From a phage: a stretch of DNA of 64,000 bases. The DNA lies in sequence record PZ386974.1; one strand, given 5' to 3'. Positions 28,962-36,141 of the stretch are shown here, in pieces (the stretch's first letter is position 1; every line of letters starts with the position of its first letter). Position numbers and translations under genes: made by a program. The notes under the pieces are model-generated. The model ran no database searches and was not told the DNA's origin. It saw only the letters and a list, made by a program, of their open reading frames with translations.

Positions 28962-30126
28962 CGAAATCTTCCATTTCGTCAAGGTCGTTTTCTATATCTG
29001 CTGCAGATGGAGCATCAGAAGTTTTAACCGGAACTTTAGTTGTTGCTTTGCAATTAATAAGGTCGTTAACAGCGTCATCAACTTCTTTAATAGAAGAGAT
29101 AGCACCTAGTTTATATTTAGTTTCAATTGCATCTCGGAAAGGTTTGTGTTTAAACAAAGGTCCCCAGAATTCTACACAATCAGTAGCTTTAGCACGCCAT
29201 GATTTTTCTTCACGAATCATTTCACCTGTTTCTTCGTCAAGGAATTCACGAGCATACCAACCGGCTTTAGGCTTAACTACAAAACCAATTTCAGTTGCCA
29301 TTTCTAACAAGCCACTGAATGGGTCAATACCGCCATCAAAATTAACCGTGATTGGGAAAGTAGATTTCTCTTTAACTGTACGAGATTTTTCTGCTTTCAA
29401 CGTGAAGTCATAACCGGTCAATTCTGTACCTTCTTTAACCTGACGTTTAGAGATAAAGAATACAGTGTTAGCAGAGTAAAGAATACCTGTACCACCACCC
29501 ATAATCTCTTTAGGATACAATCCGCCGATTTCCATTGCTGTATGGTTGATTGCAACACACGGAATATCTTTAATAGTCAGATAAGGAGTCACAATGCGGA
29601 ACAGAGATTTAAGTGCCTTAGCACGAGACATATCACCTACAACTTTCTCGTTCAACGCATCTTCGGTTTCTTTCTTAGATGCAGTATTACCAATCGAGTC
29701 AATAAAGATAATAACTTTATCACCGCGTTCAATAGCATCAAGCTGATTAGTCATATCAACTTTAAGTTGTTCGACAGATTGAATCGGAGTATGAACTACA
29801 CGGTCTAAATCAACACCCATTGAACGAAAATAAGATTCTGAAGCACCAAATTCCGAATCATAGAACAAACAAATTGCATCTTTATATTTCTTCATATATG
29901 CTGCAACCATGGTCAGTCCAAACAATGTTTTAAAATGTTTAGAAGGAGCAGCAAAAATAGTTAAGCCTGATTGCAACCCGGCATTCAGTGCACCACCTAA
30001 TGCAATATTCAACATCGGAATACGAGTAGGGACTTCATCACGATTATTAAACAGCTTAGACTTAGTCAAGTCTGCAGTCATTTTAGAAGTAGAAGCTTTA
30101 ATCAGACGAGATTTTAAATCAGACAT
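28954..30126 (-). CDS. uvsX: UvsX RecA-like recombinase
   Basis: 390 aa; RecA fold motifs; matches recalled T4 UvsX length and position. Confidence 0.9.
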   Translation of the reverse strand: MSDLKSRLIKASTSKMTADLTKSKLFNNRDEVPTRIPMLNIALGGALNAGLQSGLTIFAAPSKHFKTLFGLTMVAAYMKKYKDAICLFYDSEFGASESYFRSMGVDLDRVVHTPIQSVEQLKVDMTNQLDAIERGDKVIIFIDSIGNTASKKETEDALNEKVVGDMSRAKALKSLFRIVTPYLTIKDIPCVAINHTAMEIGGLYPKEIMGGGTGILYSANTVFFISKRQVKEGTELTGYDFTLKAEKSRTVKEKSTFPITVNFDGGIDPFSGLLEMATEIGFVVKPKAGWYAREFLDEETGEMIREEKSWRAKATDCVEFWGPLFKHKPFRDAIETKYKLGAISSIKEVDDAVNDLINCKATTKVPVKTSDAPSAADIENDLDEMEDFDE

Positions 30127-30224
30127 TGTATTTTTCCATAGGCATCATTATATTTTACTCATGTTTAAAAGATAAGACGATTATATACTAAGGGTTATAC
30201 AGCATTTAAAACTTTAAATGGCTC

Positions 30225-30773
30225 TTAACGAGCCCATTTGATGATTTCTGTAATCAAACCATTACGTTCGCTTGCATTAAATCCTATAACTTTGTTAGCA
30301 CCATCATGATTAAGTAATTGATACGTTTGGATTTTGTTATGAATTGCAAACTCTTCAAAATGTGAAATGACTGTATTAAAACCGAATGAAGACAAAGTAA
30401 TAAGGTCGTCTTCAAAACTTTCAGTCATTTCGTTACGTGTTAAAATAATTGTGAACACATCATGGTTTTGGCAAAGACGAACATAATCCTGTTCATAAAC
30501 ATCAAGAACCGAGTCCGCATCTTGTCGAATACGTCCATAAACCCAGTTACTAATATATCCACGGTCTAACAGATAAATCTTAGTAGGGTCTAAATAATTC
30601 AACATCGTTTCGAAACAGCCAACTTCATTTCGAGACTTAACATCGAAACGTCCATCAACCGTTCGTTTAGGGAAATCAATCTTTACATATCTTTCACTAA
30701 TTTCCATTATGTCATTAATGAAAGTTGTTTTACCAGCATTATCCGGGCCATCTACTAAAATAATTTTAGCCAT
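30225..30773 (-). CDS. P-loop kinase-like protein (182 aa)
   Basis: Walker A GPDNAGKTT near N-terminus; small nucleotide/sugar kinase-like size. Confidence 0.5.
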   Translation of the reverse strand: MAKIILVDGPDNAGKTTFINDIMEISERYVKIDFPKRTVDGRFDVKSRNEVGCFETMLNYLDPTKIYLLDRGYISNWVYGRIRQDADSVLDVYEQDYVRLCQNHDVFTIILTRNEMTESFEDDLITLSSFGFNTVISHFEEFAIHNKIQTYQLLNHDGANKVIGFNASERNGLITEIIKWAR

Positions 30774-30774
30774 T

Positions 30775-31674
30775 TTATTCCTCGATTACGACATCTTCGT
30801 ATTTAGGTATATTATACGGCGAAGAAATTAAAGCATTAAAGTAGATGAACTCACCAAGACCTGGATGGAATACTTCTTCAGGATTTTCGAAATATTGAAT
30901 CTTCGGACGTCCTTTAAGAATTTGATAGTACTCAGTTTTAGTTGGTTTAAAAATTCGAATCAGCGCTTCTTCAGGATACTTATTTCTGTCGAAGCTATTA
31001 TTTGGATCGGTTATATAAAGCGGTTGGCCTAATTGAATTGCACATTCAACCACTTGTTCAAAACGATAGCATGGGTCACTAATTCGAAATGGATGAAAAA
31101 TACCATCTAGATGAATAGGAGCCAAATCACCTACAAGACGCTGCATGATGGAAGGACGTATAACTTTCTGCGTTACGATAATCTTATTACCATCTGCACC
31201 TGCGTTAACCAGCACTTCTTTTTGACGTTCATTCAACACAGTAGTTTGAAGTGAACGATTAACAGACAACATGTCGGTTTTTAAGAATTCATCAATATAA
31301 AAACGTGGTTTATTAGGGTCTGCAGTGATATTGAAATTGAATTCTACGTCAAAAGCGCCATCATATCCAGTGATATCTGTGATTAGAAAATCACAATCAT
31401 AATAAGCAATTAATGAATCAACCACAAATTCATTTTCAGACCAGAAATATTTACGAGTGTTATACGCGTTATCTTTATACCATAATGGAACAAACTTAAA
31501 TTCTGGGAAAAGACGTTCACATTCTTTAATATCAGATGCATTACGTGGATATGTAATCACATCGCCTGGATTAGCACGGTGCAAATGAAGTTGGAAGTTG
31601 CCATCCTTAAGGATAGCATACTGTCCAGTTTCATAAGACCGCATACTCAAAATAGGTACGCGGAAAATAGCCAT
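30775..31674 (-). CDS. hypothetical protein in beta-glucosyltransferase position (299 aa)
   Basis: Occupies T4 beta-gt locus between 42 and uvsX; no recognisable motif; TAATG-coupled to gene 42. Confidence 0.45.
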   Translation of the reverse strand: MAIFRVPILSMRSYETGQYAILKDGNFQLHLHRANPGDVITYPRNASDIKECERLFPEFKFVPLWYKDNAYNTRKYFWSENEFVVDSLIAYYDCDFLITDITGYDGAFDVEFNFNITADPNKPRFYIDEFLKTDMLSVNRSLQTTVLNERQKEVLVNAGADGNKIIVTQKVIRPSIMQRLVGDLAPIHLDGIFHPFRISDPCYRFEQVVECAIQLGQPLYITDPNNSFDRNKYPEEALIRIFKPTKTEYYQILKGRPKIQYFENPEEVFHPGLGEFIYFNALISSPYNIPKYEDVVIEE

Positions 31675-32390
31675 TAGTCAAGAAATCCTTTAACATAATC
31701 AAAATCACGTTCAAACACATGGGCACTTACCATGGTATGAGTATAATCACCAACTTCTACACCACATTCGTTAGCGATATAATGAAGTAATTTTCCTTGG
31801 AGATAAAAATCCAACTGCATAACAACAGCACAGTTCTGAGAACGCATATGACAGTGGGTATAAAGCTTACCATCGCGAATATAATAAGTCACTGAGTCAG
31901 TACATGGATATTCAAGCGTTTCGTCCGAATCAAGCAAAGCCTGATCAGAACTTTCTAGAATTTGGAACACAACTCTTCGAGAGTTAGGCTTCTCTTTAAG
32001 TTCTTTTAGAAGAGCCGGTAATTGGGCCGCAATGCGAGGACCATAGAAAGTGTTGAAGTTCGCAGGCAAAGCATCTGATTTTGGTTTAGAAATAAATTTA
32101 GCGACATTAGGATATGCTTTAAACGCTTCTTCTGCATCAGTACCACCAGAAATCATAAACTTCCAGAAGTCTTCGGCATATTCATAAGAGATGCGGTTAA
32201 TACGTGGGTCGGTCATTTTGAATGATGATGGATTGTCAACAACTACTGTCATGGACCCGATTTCATTACAACGTCCAATACGAGAATTAGTTACGAATTC
32301 GGGGTTTTCTAAAATTTCACGATTGACTGCTTTAAATGCGGTTTGAAAATCTGCGGCTTTGATATATTTCATTGTGTTATGTTTTCCCAT
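31674..32390 (-). CDS. 42: dCMP hydroxymethylase (thymidylate synthase family)
   Basis: 238 aa; active-site region YPCTDSVTYYIRDGKLYTHCHMRSQN parallels TS/gp42 PC(H)...YQRSxD core. Confidence 0.65.
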   Translation of the reverse strand: MGKHNTMKYIKAADFQTAFKAVNREILENPEFVTNSRIGRCNEIGSMTVVVDNPSSFKMTDPRINRISYEYAEDFWKFMISGGTDAEEAFKAYPNVAKFISKPKSDALPANFNTFYGPRIAAQLPALLKELKEKPNSRRVVFQILESSDQALLDSDETLEYPCTDSVTYYIRDGKLYTHCHMRSQNCAVVMQLDFYLQGKLLHYIANECGVEVGDYTHTMVSAHVFERDFDYVKGFLD

Positions 32391-32432
32391 GTTTACCTCA
32401 ATACAATTTATTATATACTCAATTCGTAAAGC

Positions 32433-32672
32433 TTATTTGAATTTCTTGGCAATGTTGATATAACGTAAAGCTTCAGAATCTATACTTCCAAGAACACTAT
32501 GAAGGAATGCATCAGTGTAGTATTCCAATTGAACAGGTTCTTTAATCACTTTAGCCGCTTTGGTTTCAAACAGGCCCATAAGGGCCTTTTTAAGAATTTG
32601 TTCGTTAGTGTTCAGTTTAATAGTCAAAATCTCTTCGTTAAGATTATAATTAAAAGTTTTTCTAGAAATCAT
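32433..32672 (-). CDS. hypothetical protein (79 aa)
   Basis: ATG ATGA-coupled to upstream ORF. Confidence 0.4.
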   Translation of the reverse strand: MISRKTFNYNLNEEILTIKLNTNEQILKKALMGLFETKAAKVIKEPVQLEYYTDAFLHSVLGSIDSEALRYINIAKKFK

Positions 32673-33838
32673 TCCGGGTACCTCAAAGCGTCATCAGAGT
32701 TAGTTATATCAATAATAGATATAGAGTTTTCTGCTAACCCGTTTTTAGATAATTGACGTTTATAATACCTTTCACAATATGTACACGTTGACCCACAGAT
32801 TTCATTAGCACAATCAAAATCTGGATGTCTGAACCACCTTTTTTCTAAAAAGCCATCTAACAAAGAGGTTTCAATATTTACTGTATGTGAAAACTCAGTC
32901 TCATTTTCAAGAGTGAAAATAGTCTCTAAAGGCTTCCACAGTTCTAACAAATTACCTTCAAACTTTTCAGAAGCGTATGCTTCAAGAACTTTCAAAATGT
33001 AGTCTGTGCTACCTGTACGTCCTGAAACTTTGAATTGAGTGATACCAATATCATTATAAAGTTTCAAATCTTGAGGACGAACAAAACGAGTTCTCAACCA
33101 ATTAAATGGGTCTGTATCACGAGCTTTAATACAGTGCTGCATTGGATATCCGTTTAAGGATTTAGCATCATCAGCTGTAACATCAGTACTATGGAAAATA
33201 TAGCAAGAGTCACGATAGCTACAATGTGTTGTATACCCTTTACCAGCATTAGAACAGAACTCGTTTACAAGAACTTCAAATATTATATTGTTCTTATTGC
33301 AAAACTCTGCTGCACGCTTCAGGAAAGAAACTGAACGGTTCTTATGAATTCCGCAACAGACCTTTTTGATGTTATATTGGTCATGCAAGTATTTGATTTG
33401 AGTTACAGCATCGACATGTAGAATTGTTGAAACTTCAATCTCAATATCTTTATTGACTTCACGAACAATTTCCATAACAACAGGGTTAGCGATAGTAATA
33501 CGCCATACGCCTATTGACCAAAGATACTGAACATAATCCTGAATAGCTTTCTTCTTCCACTCAACTAGTTCTCTTTTTGAACCAGGATTTATCGTGTTGA
33601 GTGTATAGTTAAAGCAAATACCTAATTCGTTACAACGTTTAACGTAATCTTCTAACATCTTTTTGTCAACGTCAGGAAGCCTAAAATCAGGTCTGGCTGC
33701 TACAAAAGCCATTTCTCTTGTAGAGCCGTATACTTCGTTTATCAAGCTATTAGGATAAGTTTTATTGAGCTCTACGATTTTATCAAGAAGAGCTAAATCA
33801 AAATTCGTTCCGATTTTAAAAGTATTCATTTTTTGCAT
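32669..33838 (-). CDS. Cys-rich enzyme of unknown function (389 aa), candidate Fe-S protein
   Basis: C-terminal CANEICGSTCTYC (CX4CX3CXYC) plus internal CSNAGKGYTTHCSYRDSC cluster; embedded in sugar module. Confidence 0.5.
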   Translation of the reverse strand: MQKMNTFKIGTNFDLALLDKIVELNKTYPNSLINEVYGSTREMAFVAARPDFRLPDVDKKMLEDYVKRCNELGICFNYTLNTINPGSKRELVEWKKKAIQDYVQYLWSIGVWRITIANPVVMEIVREVNKDIEIEVSTILHVDAVTQIKYLHDQYNIKKVCCGIHKNRSVSFLKRAAEFCNKNNIIFEVLVNEFCSNAGKGYTTHCSYRDSCYIFHSTDVTADDAKSLNGYPMQHCIKARDTDPFNWLRTRFVRPQDLKLYNDIGITQFKVSGRTGSTDYILKVLEAYASEKFEGNLLELWKPLETIFTLENETEFSHTVNIETSLLDGFLEKRWFRHPDFDCANEICGSTCTYCERYYKRQLSKNGLAENSISIIDITNSDDALRYPE

Positions 33839-33884
33839 CTCGCGTTAATTGATGCGATGGTTTTTGCAGGTCTTACTTAAATTA

Positions 33885-34286
33885 TTATAGGTTCGGTTTA
33901 TATGATTTAAATGTTTCGAATTCGCCTTTATTCATAAGAGCTTTGAATTCGTCGGGACGCATAGCTTTGTCGTCGATAATCCAATCATATACTGGTTTAT
34001 GTGTTAGCAAATTATGGTACTTCAAACCAATGTTTTCCAAGTTCTGAATCAGACTTGGGAGAATGTCAATTGCTATACGACCAGGACCTACTGACTTCAT
34101 ACCGCGAGCAGTGTAAAGCGTTATGGTATGCCCTGCATCATACAGGGCATTAATGGCAGACACCATTTCGACGTCTGGTTTGAAGTTCACGTAATCACGA
34201 TTGTTATTCCACTCTGTTATACAATCATCGACATCAAAATAAAGATTAAGCATGTTTTCTACACGGTGCATTAGATTCGTTCCCAT
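33885..34286 (-). CDS. HAD-superfamily phosphatase-like protein (133 aa)
   Basis: Motif I FDVDDCIT near N-terminus and DD motif DWIIDD near C-terminus. Confidence 0.5.
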   Translation of the reverse strand: MGTNLMHRVENMLNLYFDVDDCITEWNNNRDYVNFKPDVEMVSAINALYDAGHTITLYTARGMKSVGPGRIAIDILPSLIQNLENIGLKYHNLLTHKPVYDWIIDDKAMRPDEFKALMNKGEFETFKSYKPNL

Positions 34287-35956
34287 TGATGAGTGATATC
34301 GCCACCGATTGGACGGTAAGAAACACCAGTTTCTTTATCAGTTAGTACCCATTTACCAGGATTTTTTGTAATCAGAGTAGCCGTTACAGGTTCTGCTACG
34401 TCATAACTAATAGAGCCGTCTTGAAGTACACGGCCCATGTTACGTAATTGCTTAGTCAGAAGTTCCATACCTTTATAATATGCGGCTACCGCTTTAAGTG
34501 GATTATTCTTGAAATAACCACCTAATGCAATCCAGATAATTGCTACGGCCAAATGATGATACTCGTTAAACGAACTCAGCTTTCCATATTTGTAAATTAA
34601 TGGATTGATGTTAATAGTCACATTACAAGTTGTTTCGTCAATAGTAAACTGTCCCCAGGTCGGATTAGCGTTGAATTCATCATAACCTGAAACAGCATAA
34701 AGCACTTTAGCTTCATCATACAATTTTGGCCCGTAAATCTTGGTTTCACCAAAATATCCACGAGGGTCGATAAACTTGACTTCGCCGTTATCAGTAATCA
34801 TAGTATTACTGAAGTTCGGGTCACCATGAATAACAGAGTACTGTCCCTGAGAACGGTTATGATAACGAATAAGGTGTTCTAAAGCTTGTTTCAGCATTGG
34901 CTTCAGACGCCCAATCTTAGTGTAGTTCACATGGGTGATTTTACCAAATGAATCAATCAATGGTTGAATGCTTTCACAACGATCAATAACTTTCGTATAG
35001 AATTCTTTAGTGAAATCACGACGAACAGTTTCAGGACTTACAAAATAAGTGTCTGTGCTGAATTTCAGTGCATCTAAAATTGCATCAACAATTTGTGGAC
35101 GAGCAAGACTTGATTTGGATTTAATATATTCAAATGCCGGCTTACCTTTAATGCGTTCCATTTCAAAGTTATTTTCATTAACAGAAACTAACTGAGGAAC
35201 TGAATCTGATTTCACTTTAAGATACCATGAAATCTCATCTTTCTGAAGAGCTCGACCCTGTTCGGTTAATGCGAATTTAGTTACAGTTTCTTCACCAATT
35301 TCAACTGCATTAAAACTACGATTAAGTTCACGAACTTCATGAGCTTTTTCAAGTTTAGGCATATCACCTAAATCAATTAGATTCATAAGCTCTGATTTAT
35401 TGAATGCGCTGCCGTAAAGGAATTCTACGAAATCACGTCCTTTGCAGTATTCATGAATTTCCTCATCGGTAGAACCCATATAGAATTCCCAGTCTTTGAA
35501 CTGATAAATTCCTACAACATTACCACCTGTTGAACCTACGTTAGTGATATTTTCACCGTCGAAATTATATCGACATTCGTCACCCTTAACATAGATTGCG
35601 TTAACATTCCAAGACCATGAACCAAAATCGGGAATAATATCACACCAGTTAACAATTACATTATGGCCGTCTAAATCTTTGTGTAATTTAGCAAGAGCAT
35701 AAGCAGAACCATACGCTTCATCAACTGTGCGAATAGTCACATTGAACCCTTCTTGCTCACAATAAGCTCGAACAGTTTCAGCAAATTTTGAATGAACTAC
35801 TACAATAATTTCATCTGCGCCAAGGTCAGAATAAATTGTATACAAATTGCTCAGAATAGTGTCTTGTTTATAGTTAACAAGCACCTTAGGAATATGATGC
35901 GTTATTGGATATAAACGAGTCGCCAGTCCAGCACCAAGAATAACAGCTTTTTTCAT
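34271..35956 (-). CDS. bifunctional sugar-1-phosphate nucleotidyltransferase / APH-like sugar kinase
   Basis: N-terminus ILGAGLATRLYPIT (G-x-G-T-R-L NTase motif); C-terminal HGDPNFSNTMITDNGEVKFIDPRG (Brenner kinase motif). Confidence 0.7.
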   Translation of the reverse strand: MKKAVILGAGLATRLYPITHHIPKVLVNYKQDTILSNLYTIYSDLGADEIIVVVHSKFAETVRAYCEQEGFNVTIRTVDEAYGSAYALAKLHKDLDGHNVIVNWCDIIPDFGSWSWNVNAIYVKGDECRYNFDGENITNVGSTGGNVVGIYQFKDWEFYMGSTDEEIHEYCKGRDFVEFLYGSAFNKSELMNLIDLGDMPKLEKAHEVRELNRSFNAVEIGEETVTKFALTEQGRALQKDEISWYLKVKSDSVPQLVSVNENNFEMERIKGKPAFEYIKSKSSLARPQIVDAILDALKFSTDTYFVSPETVRRDFTKEFYTKVIDRCESIQPLIDSFGKITHVNYTKIGRLKPMLKQALEHLIRYHNRSQGQYSVIHGDPNFSNTMITDNGEVKFIDPRGYFGETKIYGPKLYDEAKVLYAVSGYDEFNANPTWGQFTIDETTCNVTININPLIYKYGKLSSFNEYHHLAVAIIWIALGGYFKNNPLKAVAAYYKGMELLTKQLRNMGRVLQDGSISYDVAEPVTATLITKNPGKWVLTDKETGVSYRPIGGDITHQWERI

Positions 35957-35997
35957 GTTGAAGTCCTCATTGGTAAGTAGGAGTATTGTACACTATT

Positions 35998-36141
35998 CTA
36001 GTTAAAGCATTCATACTTTGCTTGTAGTCCAATCATAATCCATCCAATTACAAGTGTTGGAATCATTACTGGAGCCGTTAAGCTCCAGTAGATAGTCATG
36101 ACAAGCATCAATAGTAAAAGTCCTATTGTTATTGCTTTCAT
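35998..36141 (-). CDS. small membrane peptide (47 aa), below track threshold
   Basis: ATGA-coupled to SIS gene stop; translation MKAITIGLLLLMLVMTIYWSLTAPVMIPTLVIGWIMIGL... Confidence 0.3.
   Translation of the reverse strand: MKAITIGLLLLMLVMTIYWSLTAPVMIPTLVIGWIMIGLQAKYECFN

Follow-up and report, generated by a model that had tools for sequence, protein, structure and literature searches.

The DNA analysed here, a window of 64,000 nucleotides (PZ386974.1), comes from an RB69-like Mosigvirus with arabinosyl-5-hydroxycytosine in its DNA. The genes that surround the protein under study, gp50, are the following.

30225..30773, minus strand: gp45, a thymidylate-kinase-like nucleotide kinase (annotation in relatives; PMC13326640, Table 1)
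30775..31674, minus strand: gp46:47, DNA arabinosyltransferase 1 (synteny with RB69 and Bas46; PMC13326640, Table 1)
31674..32390, minus strand: gp48, a thymidylate-synthase homolog, the O2- and flavin-dependent 5-hydroxy-dCMP synthase (PF00303, E 2.3e-15; PMC13326640)
32433..32672, minus strand: gp49, an ORF of 79 aa (phrog_8601, 'unknown')
32669..33838, minus strand: gp50, a U32-family protein of 389 aa, homolog of RB69 ORF050c (ORF, PF01136, phrog_5757, AF2 model)
33885..34286, minus strand: gp51, a HAD-type phosphatase, AfhF-like (position and size; PMC13326640)
34271..35956, minus strand: gp52:53, a bifunctional sugar-1-phosphate nucleotidyltransferase and kinase, AfhE-like (PF00483 and kinase-type matches; PMC13326640)
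36138..36773, minus strand: gp55, an arabinose-5-phosphate isomerase with a SIS domain (PF01380; PMC13326640)

A preliminary description of the sequence had placed a 389-aa ORF at 32669-33838, without naming its strand, inside a sugar module. The ORF was confirmed on the minus strand, reading in the window from an ATG to a C-terminal LRYPE followed by the stop, and its setting is as described, with the HAD phosphatase on one side and the thymidylate-synthase homolog on the other. The true start may nevertheless lie 9 nt downstream, at the second in-frame ATG (Met4, 33829), giving a protein of 386 aa, because the Shine-Dalgarno spacing is better there than at the first ATG and because most homologs begin with MNTFK. 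The protein is 100% identical to that of Shigella phage Shf125875 and 99.2% identical to RB69 ORF050c, and it matches phrog_5757 with an E-value of 3.6e-267. The gp48 protein likewise shares 99.2% identity with RB69 ORF048c, and gp46:47 is intact in the window, whereas the RB69 reference copy is split by a sequencing error. The ATG of gp49 overlaps the stop codon of the U32 gene (ATGA). Among T4-like genera, the U32 protein is the most conserved of the cluster, at 82-89% identity versus 72-82% for gp48 and 38-88% for the rest.

That gp50 belongs to the U32 family is established by its profile match, its fold and its conserved residues. PF01136 (Peptidase_U32), its sole Pfam match, covers residues 97-289 with 42.2 bits against a cut-off of 22.4 (E 7.4e-11). 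For the AF2 model (pLDDT 93.6, pTM 0.92) the best PDB fold match is 5d88, the U32 peptidase Mk0906 (Foldseek E 5.8e-7, TM 0.69 on the target), which has likewise been reported as a match for RB69p050 (PMC13326640); a search of the PDB by sequence returned noise alone (E>1). This archaeal protein is the best structural match, yet it shares 11% identity with gp50, has 247 aa and lacks the C-terminal cysteine module. The preliminary description had guessed at a 'U32-like' Fe-S enzyme, and the U32 part of that guess is borne out by the profile, by the U32 fold of the model and by the retention of the Glu and Cys on which RlhA and TrhP depend. Its view that no known family could be assigned from sequence alone was mistaken, as the RB69 protein (ORF050c/gp50) had already been called U32 in 2006 (PMC1524935).

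When gp50 was compared by hhalign with the four E. coli U32 proteins, RlhA was found at 74% probability (E 2.8e-5), E193, C206 and C212 of gp50 being aligned with E161, C169 and C176 of RlhA, and the others reached at most 13%. An assignment of gp50 as ortholog of one of these paralogs was considered and rejected. Because TrhP, UbiU and UbiV do not exceed 13% and the alignment is usable with RlhA only, gp50 is treated as a separate, phage-specific subfamily of the U32 family. It scores 18.4 bits against the NCBIfam UbiU model (NF047963, cut-off 440), has no match to NCBIfam RlhA and is devoid of DUF3656; domain fusions among longer homologs are confined to an intein and DUF2621, and are uninformative.

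Of the 13 cysteines in gp50, many fall into two motifs that had been pointed out in the preliminary description. Both are present, as CSNAGKGYTTHCSYRDSC at residues 195-212 and as CANEICGSTCTYC at residues 343-355, the latter followed by 34 residues to the C-terminus, and both are conserved beyond chance: no substitution of C195, C206, C212, C236, C343, C348, C352 or C355 occurs in 115 homologs with identities down to 46%.

33131..33262, minus strand: core U32 motif of gp50, residues 193-236, with E193, C195, C206, R209, C212, Y213, H216 and C236
32774..32812, minus strand: C-terminal CX4CX3CX2C motif of gp50, residues 343-355, with four conserved Cys

The eight residues listed for the core motif are invariant in the homolog alignment (A2), and are candidate ligands of a catalytic [4Fe-4S] cluster. 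The core cysteines are spaced CX10CX5CX23C (C195, C206, C212, C236), as opposed to the canonical U32 spacing CX6CX15CX3/4C, which, like its variants in UbiU and UbiV, holds a [4Fe-4S] cluster. The C-terminal motif, modelled with a pLDDT of 94-98, is a candidate for a second metal or Fe-S site that would be specific to the subfamily. Among more distant relatives, sampled as 132 representatives of 50%-identity clusters, C236 is retained in all 132 and C195 in 131, as is the K-x-x-G-R motif (K270 and R274 in gp50) in 132/132; the four C-terminal cysteines are present in 110-115, E193 in 93, and C206 and C212 in 80-81.

The pathway in which gp50 is embedded has been described as complete without it (PMC13326640, NAR 2026). 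In that work 5-hydroxy-dCMP is made by gp48, an O2- and flavin-dependent thymidylate-synthase homolog, as demonstrated by activity and by 18O2 labelling; the enzyme requires reduced flavin, binds FMN loosely and is active in E. coli without gp50. The synthesis of UDP-arabinofuranose is accounted for by API, AfhE and AfhF, and gp50 appears in a table as 'sugar or heterocycle reductase', which is a placeholder. Since the oxygen introduced by gp48 comes from O2, gp48 cannot work anaerobically. No paper in the literature covered connects phage U32 proteins with arabinosyl- or hydroxy-cytosine, with prephenate or with chorismate mutase, and a Tn-seq preprint on LC53 and Bas46 is without gene-level data for these phages.

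The company that U32 genes keep in other phages is informative in this respect. The gp50-type clade comprises at least 459 clusters at 50% identity, mostly phage-borne. All 15 of the T4-like loci examined that carry U32 also carry a gp48 homolog and the rest of the arabinosyl-5-hydroxycytosine cluster. The converse does not hold: U32 and chorismate mutase are both absent from the inspected syntenic clusters of a Dhakavirus and of Acinetobacter phage Maestro, the latter reported to carry arabinosyl-5-hydroxycytosine (PMC13326640). Genes similar to gp48 occur in 57 Acinetobacter phage records, and Acinetobacter figured neither among the ten most frequent organisms of the 222 U32 matches nor in 60 sampled entries. 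Taken together, these clusters and records suggest that U32 may be dispensable under aerobic conditions. About 67 enterobacterial phage records, for example from Dhakavirus, carry gp48 without U32, so that the absence of U32 is not confined to phages of strict aerobes.

Outside the T4-like phages, 36 dereplicated U32 lineages were scanned by HMM over up to 21 kb per locus (±10 kb), and in 35 of them no gene of the thymidylate-synthase family was found near U32. Instead, U32 sits in DNA-modification and replication modules with DNA glycosyltransferases, methyltransferases, NMP kinases, dCTPase- or dUTPase-like genes and DNA polymerase. A gp46-like glycosyltransferase lies beside it in at least 15 lineages, and further neighbours include a TAGT-like glycosyltransferase, a guanylate-kinase/methyltransferase fusion, Tmk-like kinases and genes for the supply of arabinose or galactofuranose; some loci have a Tmk and a glycosyltransferase alone, with no sugar-activation genes. 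These neighbours are enzymes that need a hydroxyl acceptor, together with a kinase for the modified nucleotide, which suggests that U32 may take the place of the thymidylate-synthase homolog in non-T4 phages. Most of the genomes in which U32 was matched come from obligate anaerobes, as bins or isolates (Phocaeicola faecalis, Romboutsia, Clostridium, Erysipelotrichales and Gastranaerophilaceae), although the host assignment of phage contigs in metagenome-assembled genomes is unreliable. One U32-only contig, IMG/VR 3300045988_074298, gave just 1.4 kb of further sequence beyond the locus.

A second association concerns prephenate. In 13 of the 15 T4-like loci a chorismate mutase (PF01817, 36-50 bits versus a cut-off of 27) is encoded between U32 and gp48, and the same arrangement is seen in 52 GenBank phage records; in LC53 the chorismate mutase gene overlaps the gene on each side by 4 nt. 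Metagenomic phages unrelated to these show a similar linkage: in 8 of the 36 dereplicated lineages, and in at least four different gene architectures, U32 has a small chorismate mutase or a DAHP-synthase/chorismate-mutase fusion 0.7-2.9 kb away, with the catalytic residues R11, R28, K39, S84 and Q88 conserved. This linkage suggests, indirectly, that gp50 may use prephenate. In the present window the slot of the chorismate mutase is occupied by gp49; the ORFs in that slot of sister phages do match CM_2 (PF01817). The idea that gp49 itself is a diverged chorismate mutase was rejected, as it has no Pfam match at E<=10 and an hhalign probability of 0.08% against phage chorismate mutases, and a chorismate-mutase HMM run over all frames of the window detected nothing.

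From these observations we propose, with moderate confidence, that gp50 is an O2-independent, prephenate-dependent isozyme of the hydroxylase gp48, comparable to RlhA for 5-hydroxycytidine, TrhP for 5-hydroxyuridine and UbiU/UbiV. Where O2 is absent or scarce, gp50 would hydroxylate C5 of cytosine, with dCMP as the most likely substrate and DNA as a less likely one. Prephenate would donate the oxygen atom and be released as phenylpyruvate and CO2, and the electrons would exit via the Fe-S centre or centres of gp50. The resulting 5-hydroxy-dCMP would follow the route of the gp48 product: it would be phosphorylated, built into DNA by the phage polymerase and arabinosylated there. Because the window encodes no chorismate mutase, we infer that prephenate would be supplied in this Mosigvirus by host PheA/TyrA. 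Thus gp50 and gp48 would constitute an anaerobic/aerobic enzyme pair, such as UbiU/UbiV and UbiI/H/F, TrhP and TrhO, or NrdD and NrdAB.

Several characterised systems offer precedents for the parts of this proposal. RlhA (YdcP), the 5-hydroxycytidine synthase for C2501 of E. coli 23S rRNA, shares with gp50 the U32 domain, the aligned essential Glu and Cys, and additional C-terminal Cys residues, which RlhA needs; it depends on prephenate and on Fe-S biogenesis, and its chemistry, C5 hydroxylation of cytosine, is the one proposed for gp50. Profile comparison ranks it first among the four E. coli paralogs, but the similarity is remote: RlhA has 653 aa, includes DUF3656 and acts on a ribosome precursor, whereas gp50 has 389 aa, no DUF3656 and presumably a deoxynucleotide or DNA as substrate, and is set apart by its CX10CX5CX23C spacing and its CX4CX3CX2C tail. 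C5 hydroxylation of cytidine requires RlhA and that of uridine requires TrhP; the modification is prephenate-dependent, and E161, C169 and C176 of RlhA as well as E162, C170 and C177 of TrhP are essential for it (PMC5727448, PMC6599085). For the 5-hydroxyuridine at position 34 of tRNA, TrhP and TrhO provide a prephenate-dependent U32 route and an unrelated O2-dependent route to one product, with or without O2, which is the logic proposed here for gp50 and gp48; TrhP acts on tRNA, however, and is weakly similar to gp50, and TrhO is a rhodanese rather than a thymidylate-synthase homolog. In B. subtilis 5-hydroxyuridine is then O-methylated (mo5U), and the kinase/methyltransferase-U32 cassette of loci L048, L068 and L069 resembles that situation. 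UbiU-UbiV, the O2-independent ubiquinone hydroxylases, are U32 proteins each holding a [4Fe-4S] cluster on four conserved Cys, for which prephenate has been shown to be the oxygen donor and which are the anaerobic counterparts of flavin/O2 hydroxylases. They form a heterodimer acting on a lipid with UbiT as carrier, whereas both metal sites may lie within the one chain of gp50. The gp48-type 5-hydroxy-dCMP synthases (RB69 gp48, DLP3 gp80 and the HY126 homolog) share pathway, cluster and proposed product with gp50, but their activity is experimentally proven and relies on a thymidylate-synthase fold, FMN and O2, whereas the activity of gp50 is predicted and its fold and cofactor are unrelated.

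Other roles have to be weighed against that of a hydroxylase isozyme. One is that gp50 is a redox helper of gp48, for instance reducing its loosely bound flavin or passing electrons to it. The two genes are two apart in every T4-like locus, gp48 needs its flavin reduced, Fe-S proteins commonly transfer electrons, and the published table label speaks of a reductase. We nevertheless regard this role as unlikely, since gp48 functions in E. coli in the absence of gp50, U32 occurs where no thymidylate-synthase homolog was found nearby (the 35 of 36 non-T4 lineages, within 21 kb per locus), such a role does not account for the linked genes for chorismate mutase and DAHP synthase, and gp50 conserves the residues required for hydroxylation in RlhA and TrhP. 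Equally improbable is a role unrelated to DNA modification, in which gp50 would use prephenate to hydroxylate a different target: tRNA or rRNA of host or phage, for example, or a small molecule. The characterised nucleic-acid U32 enzymes do all act on RNA, and the chorismate-mutase linkage implies the use of prephenate and says nothing of the substrate, but the consistent position of U32 inside DNA-modification and replication modules, and its co-occurrence with gp48 and the arabinosyl-5-hydroxycytosine cluster in all 15 T4-like loci, argue for a role in DNA modification.

The sugar branch is a slightly poorer candidate still. A reductase or isomerase acting on an arabinose intermediate would fit the location of gp50 between the HAD phosphatase and the base-modifying genes, its TIM-barrel fold, which is frequent in sugar enzymes, and the BASEL annotation 'putative enzyme involved in UDP-arabinose biosynthesis'. 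However, API, AfhE and AfhF suffice for UDP-arabinofuranose, the clusters inspected in the Dhakavirus and in Maestro, with its reported arabinosyl-5-hydroxycytosine, lack U32, and U32 also accompanies galactofuranose genes, a methyltransferase, or just a Tmk and a glycosyltransferase. Of the three targets that the preliminary description had left open, namely sugar, nucleotide and base, the evidence favours the base over the sugar, because the constant partners of U32 in phages use a DNA hydroxyl or are NMP kinases, whatever the sugar pathway. A collagenase-like protease, as implied by the many records annotated 'peptidase', 'collagenase-like protease' or 'putative protease' and by two U32 proteins reported to be collagenolytic, is very improbable, given that no proteolytic catalytic mechanism is known in the family, that its characterised members are all tied to hydroxylation, and that the context of gp50 is nucleotide metabolism and not morphogenesis or lysis. 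Radical-SAM enzymes have their cluster near the start of the barrel and leave one of its irons open for SAM, and the radical-SAM enzyme envisaged in the preliminary description can be rejected with near certainty: C348-GST-C352-TY-C355 has the right CX3CX2C spacing and an aromatic residue before the last Cys, but there is no PF04055 match at E<=1, the motif comes after the barrel (residues 348-355 of 389), C343, which is invariant too, would complete the ligation of the cluster as its fourth Cys, and fold and profile are those of U32.

More tentatively, and with a chance that we put at a little under even, the isozyme proposed for gp50 may be extended to the phage U32 clade as a whole, whose members would be self-contained, possibly two-cluster, prephenate-dependent hydroxylases of free pyrimidine deoxynucleotides. 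To phages of anoxic habitats they would open an O2-free route to O-linked hypermodified bases (glycosyl- and possibly methoxy-5-hydroxypyrimidines). Some of the phages, bringing a DAHP synthase and a chorismate mutase of their own, would also rewire the shikimate pathway of the host so that the oxygen donor is supplied. None of the U32 enzymes has yet been reconstituted in vitro, which has been hampered by their substrates, i.e. ribosome precursors, tRNAs and very hydrophobic quinone intermediates; if gp50 acts on dCMP, a U32 enzyme would for the first time have a substrate that is small and soluble, and the prephenate-dependent mechanism could be tested directly. It would also be the first case of oxygen donation by prephenate in DNA modification. 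The sole proven hydroxylase of the pathway, gp48, requires O2, and a second, anaerobic enzyme would account for replication without O2 by gut phages in which 5-hydroxycytosine derivatives take the place of all cytosine. How Mosigvirus phages perform with or without O2 is of practical weight, since they serve as therapeutic and model phages. More broadly, the shikimate-pathway genes of phages would be auxiliary genes serving DNA modification, and the U32-only modules, with their various glycosyltransferases or a methyltransferase, would point to a wide and unexplored range of phage DNA hypermodifications in anaerobic microbiomes.

Comparison across phage genomes makes it reasonably likely that gp50, the Cys-rich protein of the window, is an O2-independent, prephenate-dependent counterpart of gp48, the flavin-dependent thymidylate synthase (TS) homolog. 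Over positions 30000-36000 the window is 98.8% identical to Escherichia phage PhAPEC2 (Mosigvirus, RB69 group), and gp50 is 100% identical to a Shigella phage Shf125875 protein and 99.2% identical to RB69 ORF050c. The order along transcription is DNA polymerase, gp55 (arabinose-5-P isomerase), gp52:53 (nucleotidyltransferase/kinase), gp51 (HAD phosphatase), gp50, gp49, gp48 (TS homolog), gp46:47 (glycosyltransferase, GT), gp45 (Tmk-like kinase) and UvsX. RB69 DNA bears mono- and di-arabinosyl-5-hydroxycytosine (ara-5hoC) (Lee et al., NAR 2026, PMC13326640). According to the same paper (PMC13326640), gp48 forms 5-hydroxy-dCMP with the help of a loosely bound FMN, the oxygen coming from 18O2; gp55, gp52:53 and gp51 cover UDP-arabinofuranose synthesis; and RB69p050 appears only in Table 1, as a 'sugar or heterocycle reductase' with structural match 5d88; its discussion cites the RlhA and TrhP hydroxylation routes, and gp50's membership of that family goes unremarked. 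In the RB69 reference ORF046/047 and ORF052/053 are split halves, for which Lee et al. blamed sequencing errors (PMC13326640). The window encodes:

30775..31674, minus strand: glycosyltransferase gp46:47, 299 aa, one intact ORF
32433..32672, minus strand: gp49, 79 aa, phrog_8601 (no function given), no Pfam match
32669..33838, minus strand: gp50 (U32), 389 aa
34271..35956, minus strand: nucleotidyltransferase/kinase gp52:53, 561 aa, one intact ORF

The preliminary description had quoted two Cys stretches in gp50, both of which are found (residues 195-212 and 343-355), and had held the protein not assignable from sequence, which is wrong: RB69 ORF050c was already assigned to U32 in 2006 (PMC1524935), and gp50 matches Pfam PF01136 at 42.2 bits (cut-off 22.4). 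This match and an AF2 model (115-homolog alignment, pLDDT 93.6), which among PDB structures most resembles the U32 protein Mk0906 (5d88), bear out its alternative guess of a U32-like protein. PHROGs places gp50 in PHROG 5757, 'peptidase' (E 3.6e-267), and the single NCBIfam match, UbiU, is below threshold. Translation may start at 33829 instead of at the first ATG, because a GAG is better positioned ahead of a second ATG (codon 4) and homologs mostly start MNTFK. When profiles were compared with the four E. coli U32 proteins, a long alignment was obtained with RlhA only (74% probability, E 2.8e-5), in which E193, C206 and C212 of gp50 align with RlhA E161, C169 and C176; these residues are essential for ho5C, as are their TrhP equivalents for ho5U (PMC5727448, PMC6599085). 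Whereas the canonical U32 Cys motif is CX6CX15CX3/4C (PMC6747719), gp50 has CX10CX5CX23C (C195, C206, C212, C236). Its second Cys block, CX4CX3CX2C (C343-C355), is invariant among close homologs and kept in 83-87% of distant ones. A full HMMER scan of 1.84 billion representatives gave 459 clusters at E<=1e-30, and relaxing the threshold to E<=1e-3 raised this only to 1,656; the gp50 group therefore forms a distinct U32 subfamily. P0187, a distant metagenomic homolog of 699 aa, is split by an intein (Hint/intein-splicing domains, residues ~169-537) whose insertion point adjoins the conserved Cys region of the U32 motif, with ~35 extein residues apparently missing.

ORFs were called in 47 non-T4 and 15 T4-like loci, compared with the window's cluster proteins and clustered all against all, and cluster representatives were annotated with Pfam. 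A TS-family HMM built from phage gp48 homologs, the TS-like protein of locus L024, Acinetobacter phage Maestro and E. coli ThyA matches 15/15 T4-like loci and, within +-10 kb (<=21 kb per locus), 1/36 dereplicated non-T4 lineages. In the non-T4 lineages, as seen in <=21 kb per locus, U32 appears to replace the TS homolog. GTs like gp46 adjoin U32 in at least 15 of these lineages, in many cases with the stop codon of one gene overlapping the start of the next; AfhE-like enzymes (sugar-1-P nucleotidyltransferase and kinase) lie nearby in 12 and arabinose-5-P isomerase in 9, and HAD phosphatases and Tmk-like kinases also adjoin U32. A minimal module of dUTPase-like protein, Tmk, GT, U32 and PolIII-alpha recurs, of which the (dUTPase-like)-Tmk-GT-U32 part may constitute a minimal system for base glycosylation without O2. 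In L003, L025, L029, L034, L037 and L051 (contigs of ~45-49 kb) the order is (dUTPase-like), Tmk-like, gp46-like GT and U32 directly upstream of PolIII-alpha, and the TS homolog is absent from the 17-21 kb seen.

What these U32 loci share is a hydroxyl-decorating enzyme with a modified-nucleotide kinase, whatever the sugar. UDP-galactopyranose mutase and an epimerase lie near U32 in two loci, and these mutases and a TAGT-like (TET-associated-glycosyltransferase-like) neighbour elsewhere hint at non-arabinose sugars on the presumed 5-hydroxypyrimidine. In three further loci a guanylate-kinase/SAM-methyltransferase fusion lies two genes upstream of U32, which suggests nucleotide hydroxylation followed by O-methylation, possibly giving 5-methoxypyrimidine in DNA.

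L004 2400-3542 and L055 8523-9686: UDP-galactopyranose mutase, adjoining U32
L030 11086-11979: TAGT-like protein, adjoining U32 (weak match, below the Pfam cut-off)
L048 7943-11086 (viral contig), L068 6929-11086 (BRC1 MAG) and L069 3044-7137 (Phocaeicola faecalis isolate): kinase/methyltransferase-U32 cassette

This conserved cassette runs from the fusion of guanylate-kinase-like NMP kinase and SAM methyltransferase through an unknown protein of ~265-280 aa to U32; a GP88 gene (PF17338) precedes it in L068 and L069.

UbiU/V have been shown to take their oxygen from prephenate (PMC10990095), and the RlhA- and TrhP-dependent hydroxylations genetically require this compound (PMC5727448, PMC6599085). 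In 13 of the 15 T4-like loci the small ORF between U32 and gp48 is a chorismate mutase (CM; PF01817, 36-50 bits, cut-off 27). The same gene occurs in 52 GenBank records of T4-like ara-5hoC phages outside Mosigvirus (Klebsiella, Serratia LC53 and 92A1, Yersinia, Enterobacter, Edwardsiella, Erwinia, Providencia, EcS1 and Shewanella Thanatos). The E. coli catalytic residues R11, R28, K39, S84 and Q88 are conserved in the phage enzymes, which PHROGs lists as phrog_10027, 'unknown function', and in LC53 each neighbouring pair among the U32, CM and TS genes shares 4 nt. Other small CMs lie near U32 in jumbo-phage loci and one Erysipelotrichales bin. Cluster c5 is, by Pfam, a DAHP synthase fused to a type II CM; it adjoins U32 in L033, L035, L036, L038, L047 and L064, and its genes, carried by metagenomic phages, are phage auxiliary genes for the shikimate entry step and the prephenate branch.

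L033 8411-9433, L036 7302-8357, L038 8332-9387, L047 11085-12203 and L064 8940-9968: DAHP synthase with C-terminal CM domain
L022 9384-10130: DAHP synthase alone
L011 11170-11409, L015 11167-11511, L023 11394-11630 and others: minimal AroQ CM, 78-132 aa
LC53, OP617331.1 21181-21525: minimal AroQ CM between the U32 and TS-homolog genes

Mosigviruses are without CM, and a CM HMM found no match in any frame of the 64-kb window. The slot of the CM gene in sister T4-like phages is occupied exactly by gp49, whose ATG overlaps the gp50 stop as ATGA, coupling it translationally to U32. As a CM gp49 was rejected, being unrelated in sequence comparison; nor is it simply a CM replacement, because L017, L019 and L023 carry gp49-like and CM genes in tandem.

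Three context results bear on function: U32 in place of TS, a varying sugar with constant U32, and the prephenate link. Each rival leaves at least one of them unexplained, whether gp50 is taken as a redox helper of gp48, a sugar-pathway enzyme or a hydroxylase of RNA or another target; the same holds for a protease and for the radical-SAM enzyme of the preliminary description. For the proposed prephenate-dependent hydroxylase, two points favour a nucleotide-level substrate: U32 is accompanied by NMP kinases, and in RB69 all cytosine is replaced.

The gp50 protein occurs in 222 GenBank phage records, all T4-like and at >=80% identity; further homologs (45-58% identity) are on metagenomic phage contigs only, from ~45-kb phages with PolIII-alpha polymerase, 130-290-kb phages and one 466-kb contig. 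A one-genome-per-species scan gave only ten U32 loci, mostly in obligate-anaerobe bins, for which host assignment of binned phage contigs is weak, and one in a Phocaeicola faecalis isolate. Among T4-like genera U32 is the best-conserved cluster protein (82-89% identity versus 72-82% for gp48), labelled 'hypothetical protein' in the GenBank record of HY126 and 'putative peptidase' in that of LC53. Of the 346 phage records with the gp48-type hydroxylase, 57 are from Acinetobacter phages; Acinetobacter is absent from the U32 organism counts (top ten organisms) and from 60 sampled rows of the 222 records. The cluster of Maestro (L058) reads isomerase, AfhE, HAD, TS, GT, Tmk, as in RB69 but with U32 and gp49 left out, and this phage is reported to carry ara-5hoC (PMC13326640); U32 is therefore dispensable for making the modification in air. 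E. coli Dhakaviruses likewise are without U32, so its absence extends beyond phages of strict aerobes. L058 and L059 (Escherichia phage vB_EcoM_005, Dhakavirus) share a syntenic AfhE-HAD-(Tmk)-TS-GT cluster with no U32 or CM; by counts, ~67 enterobacterial phage records have a gp48-type hydroxylase but no U32.

Among the papers that our literature search covered, none links phage U32 to hydroxylation, prephenate or CM. The U32 family of gp50 was already known; what comparative evidence adds is a specific, testable and fairly novel putative mechanism. Under anoxia gp50 would make 5-hydroxy-dCMP, or else hydroxylate C in DNA, and, the window being without CM, its phage would, if this proposal is right, depend on host PheA/TyrA for prephenate.
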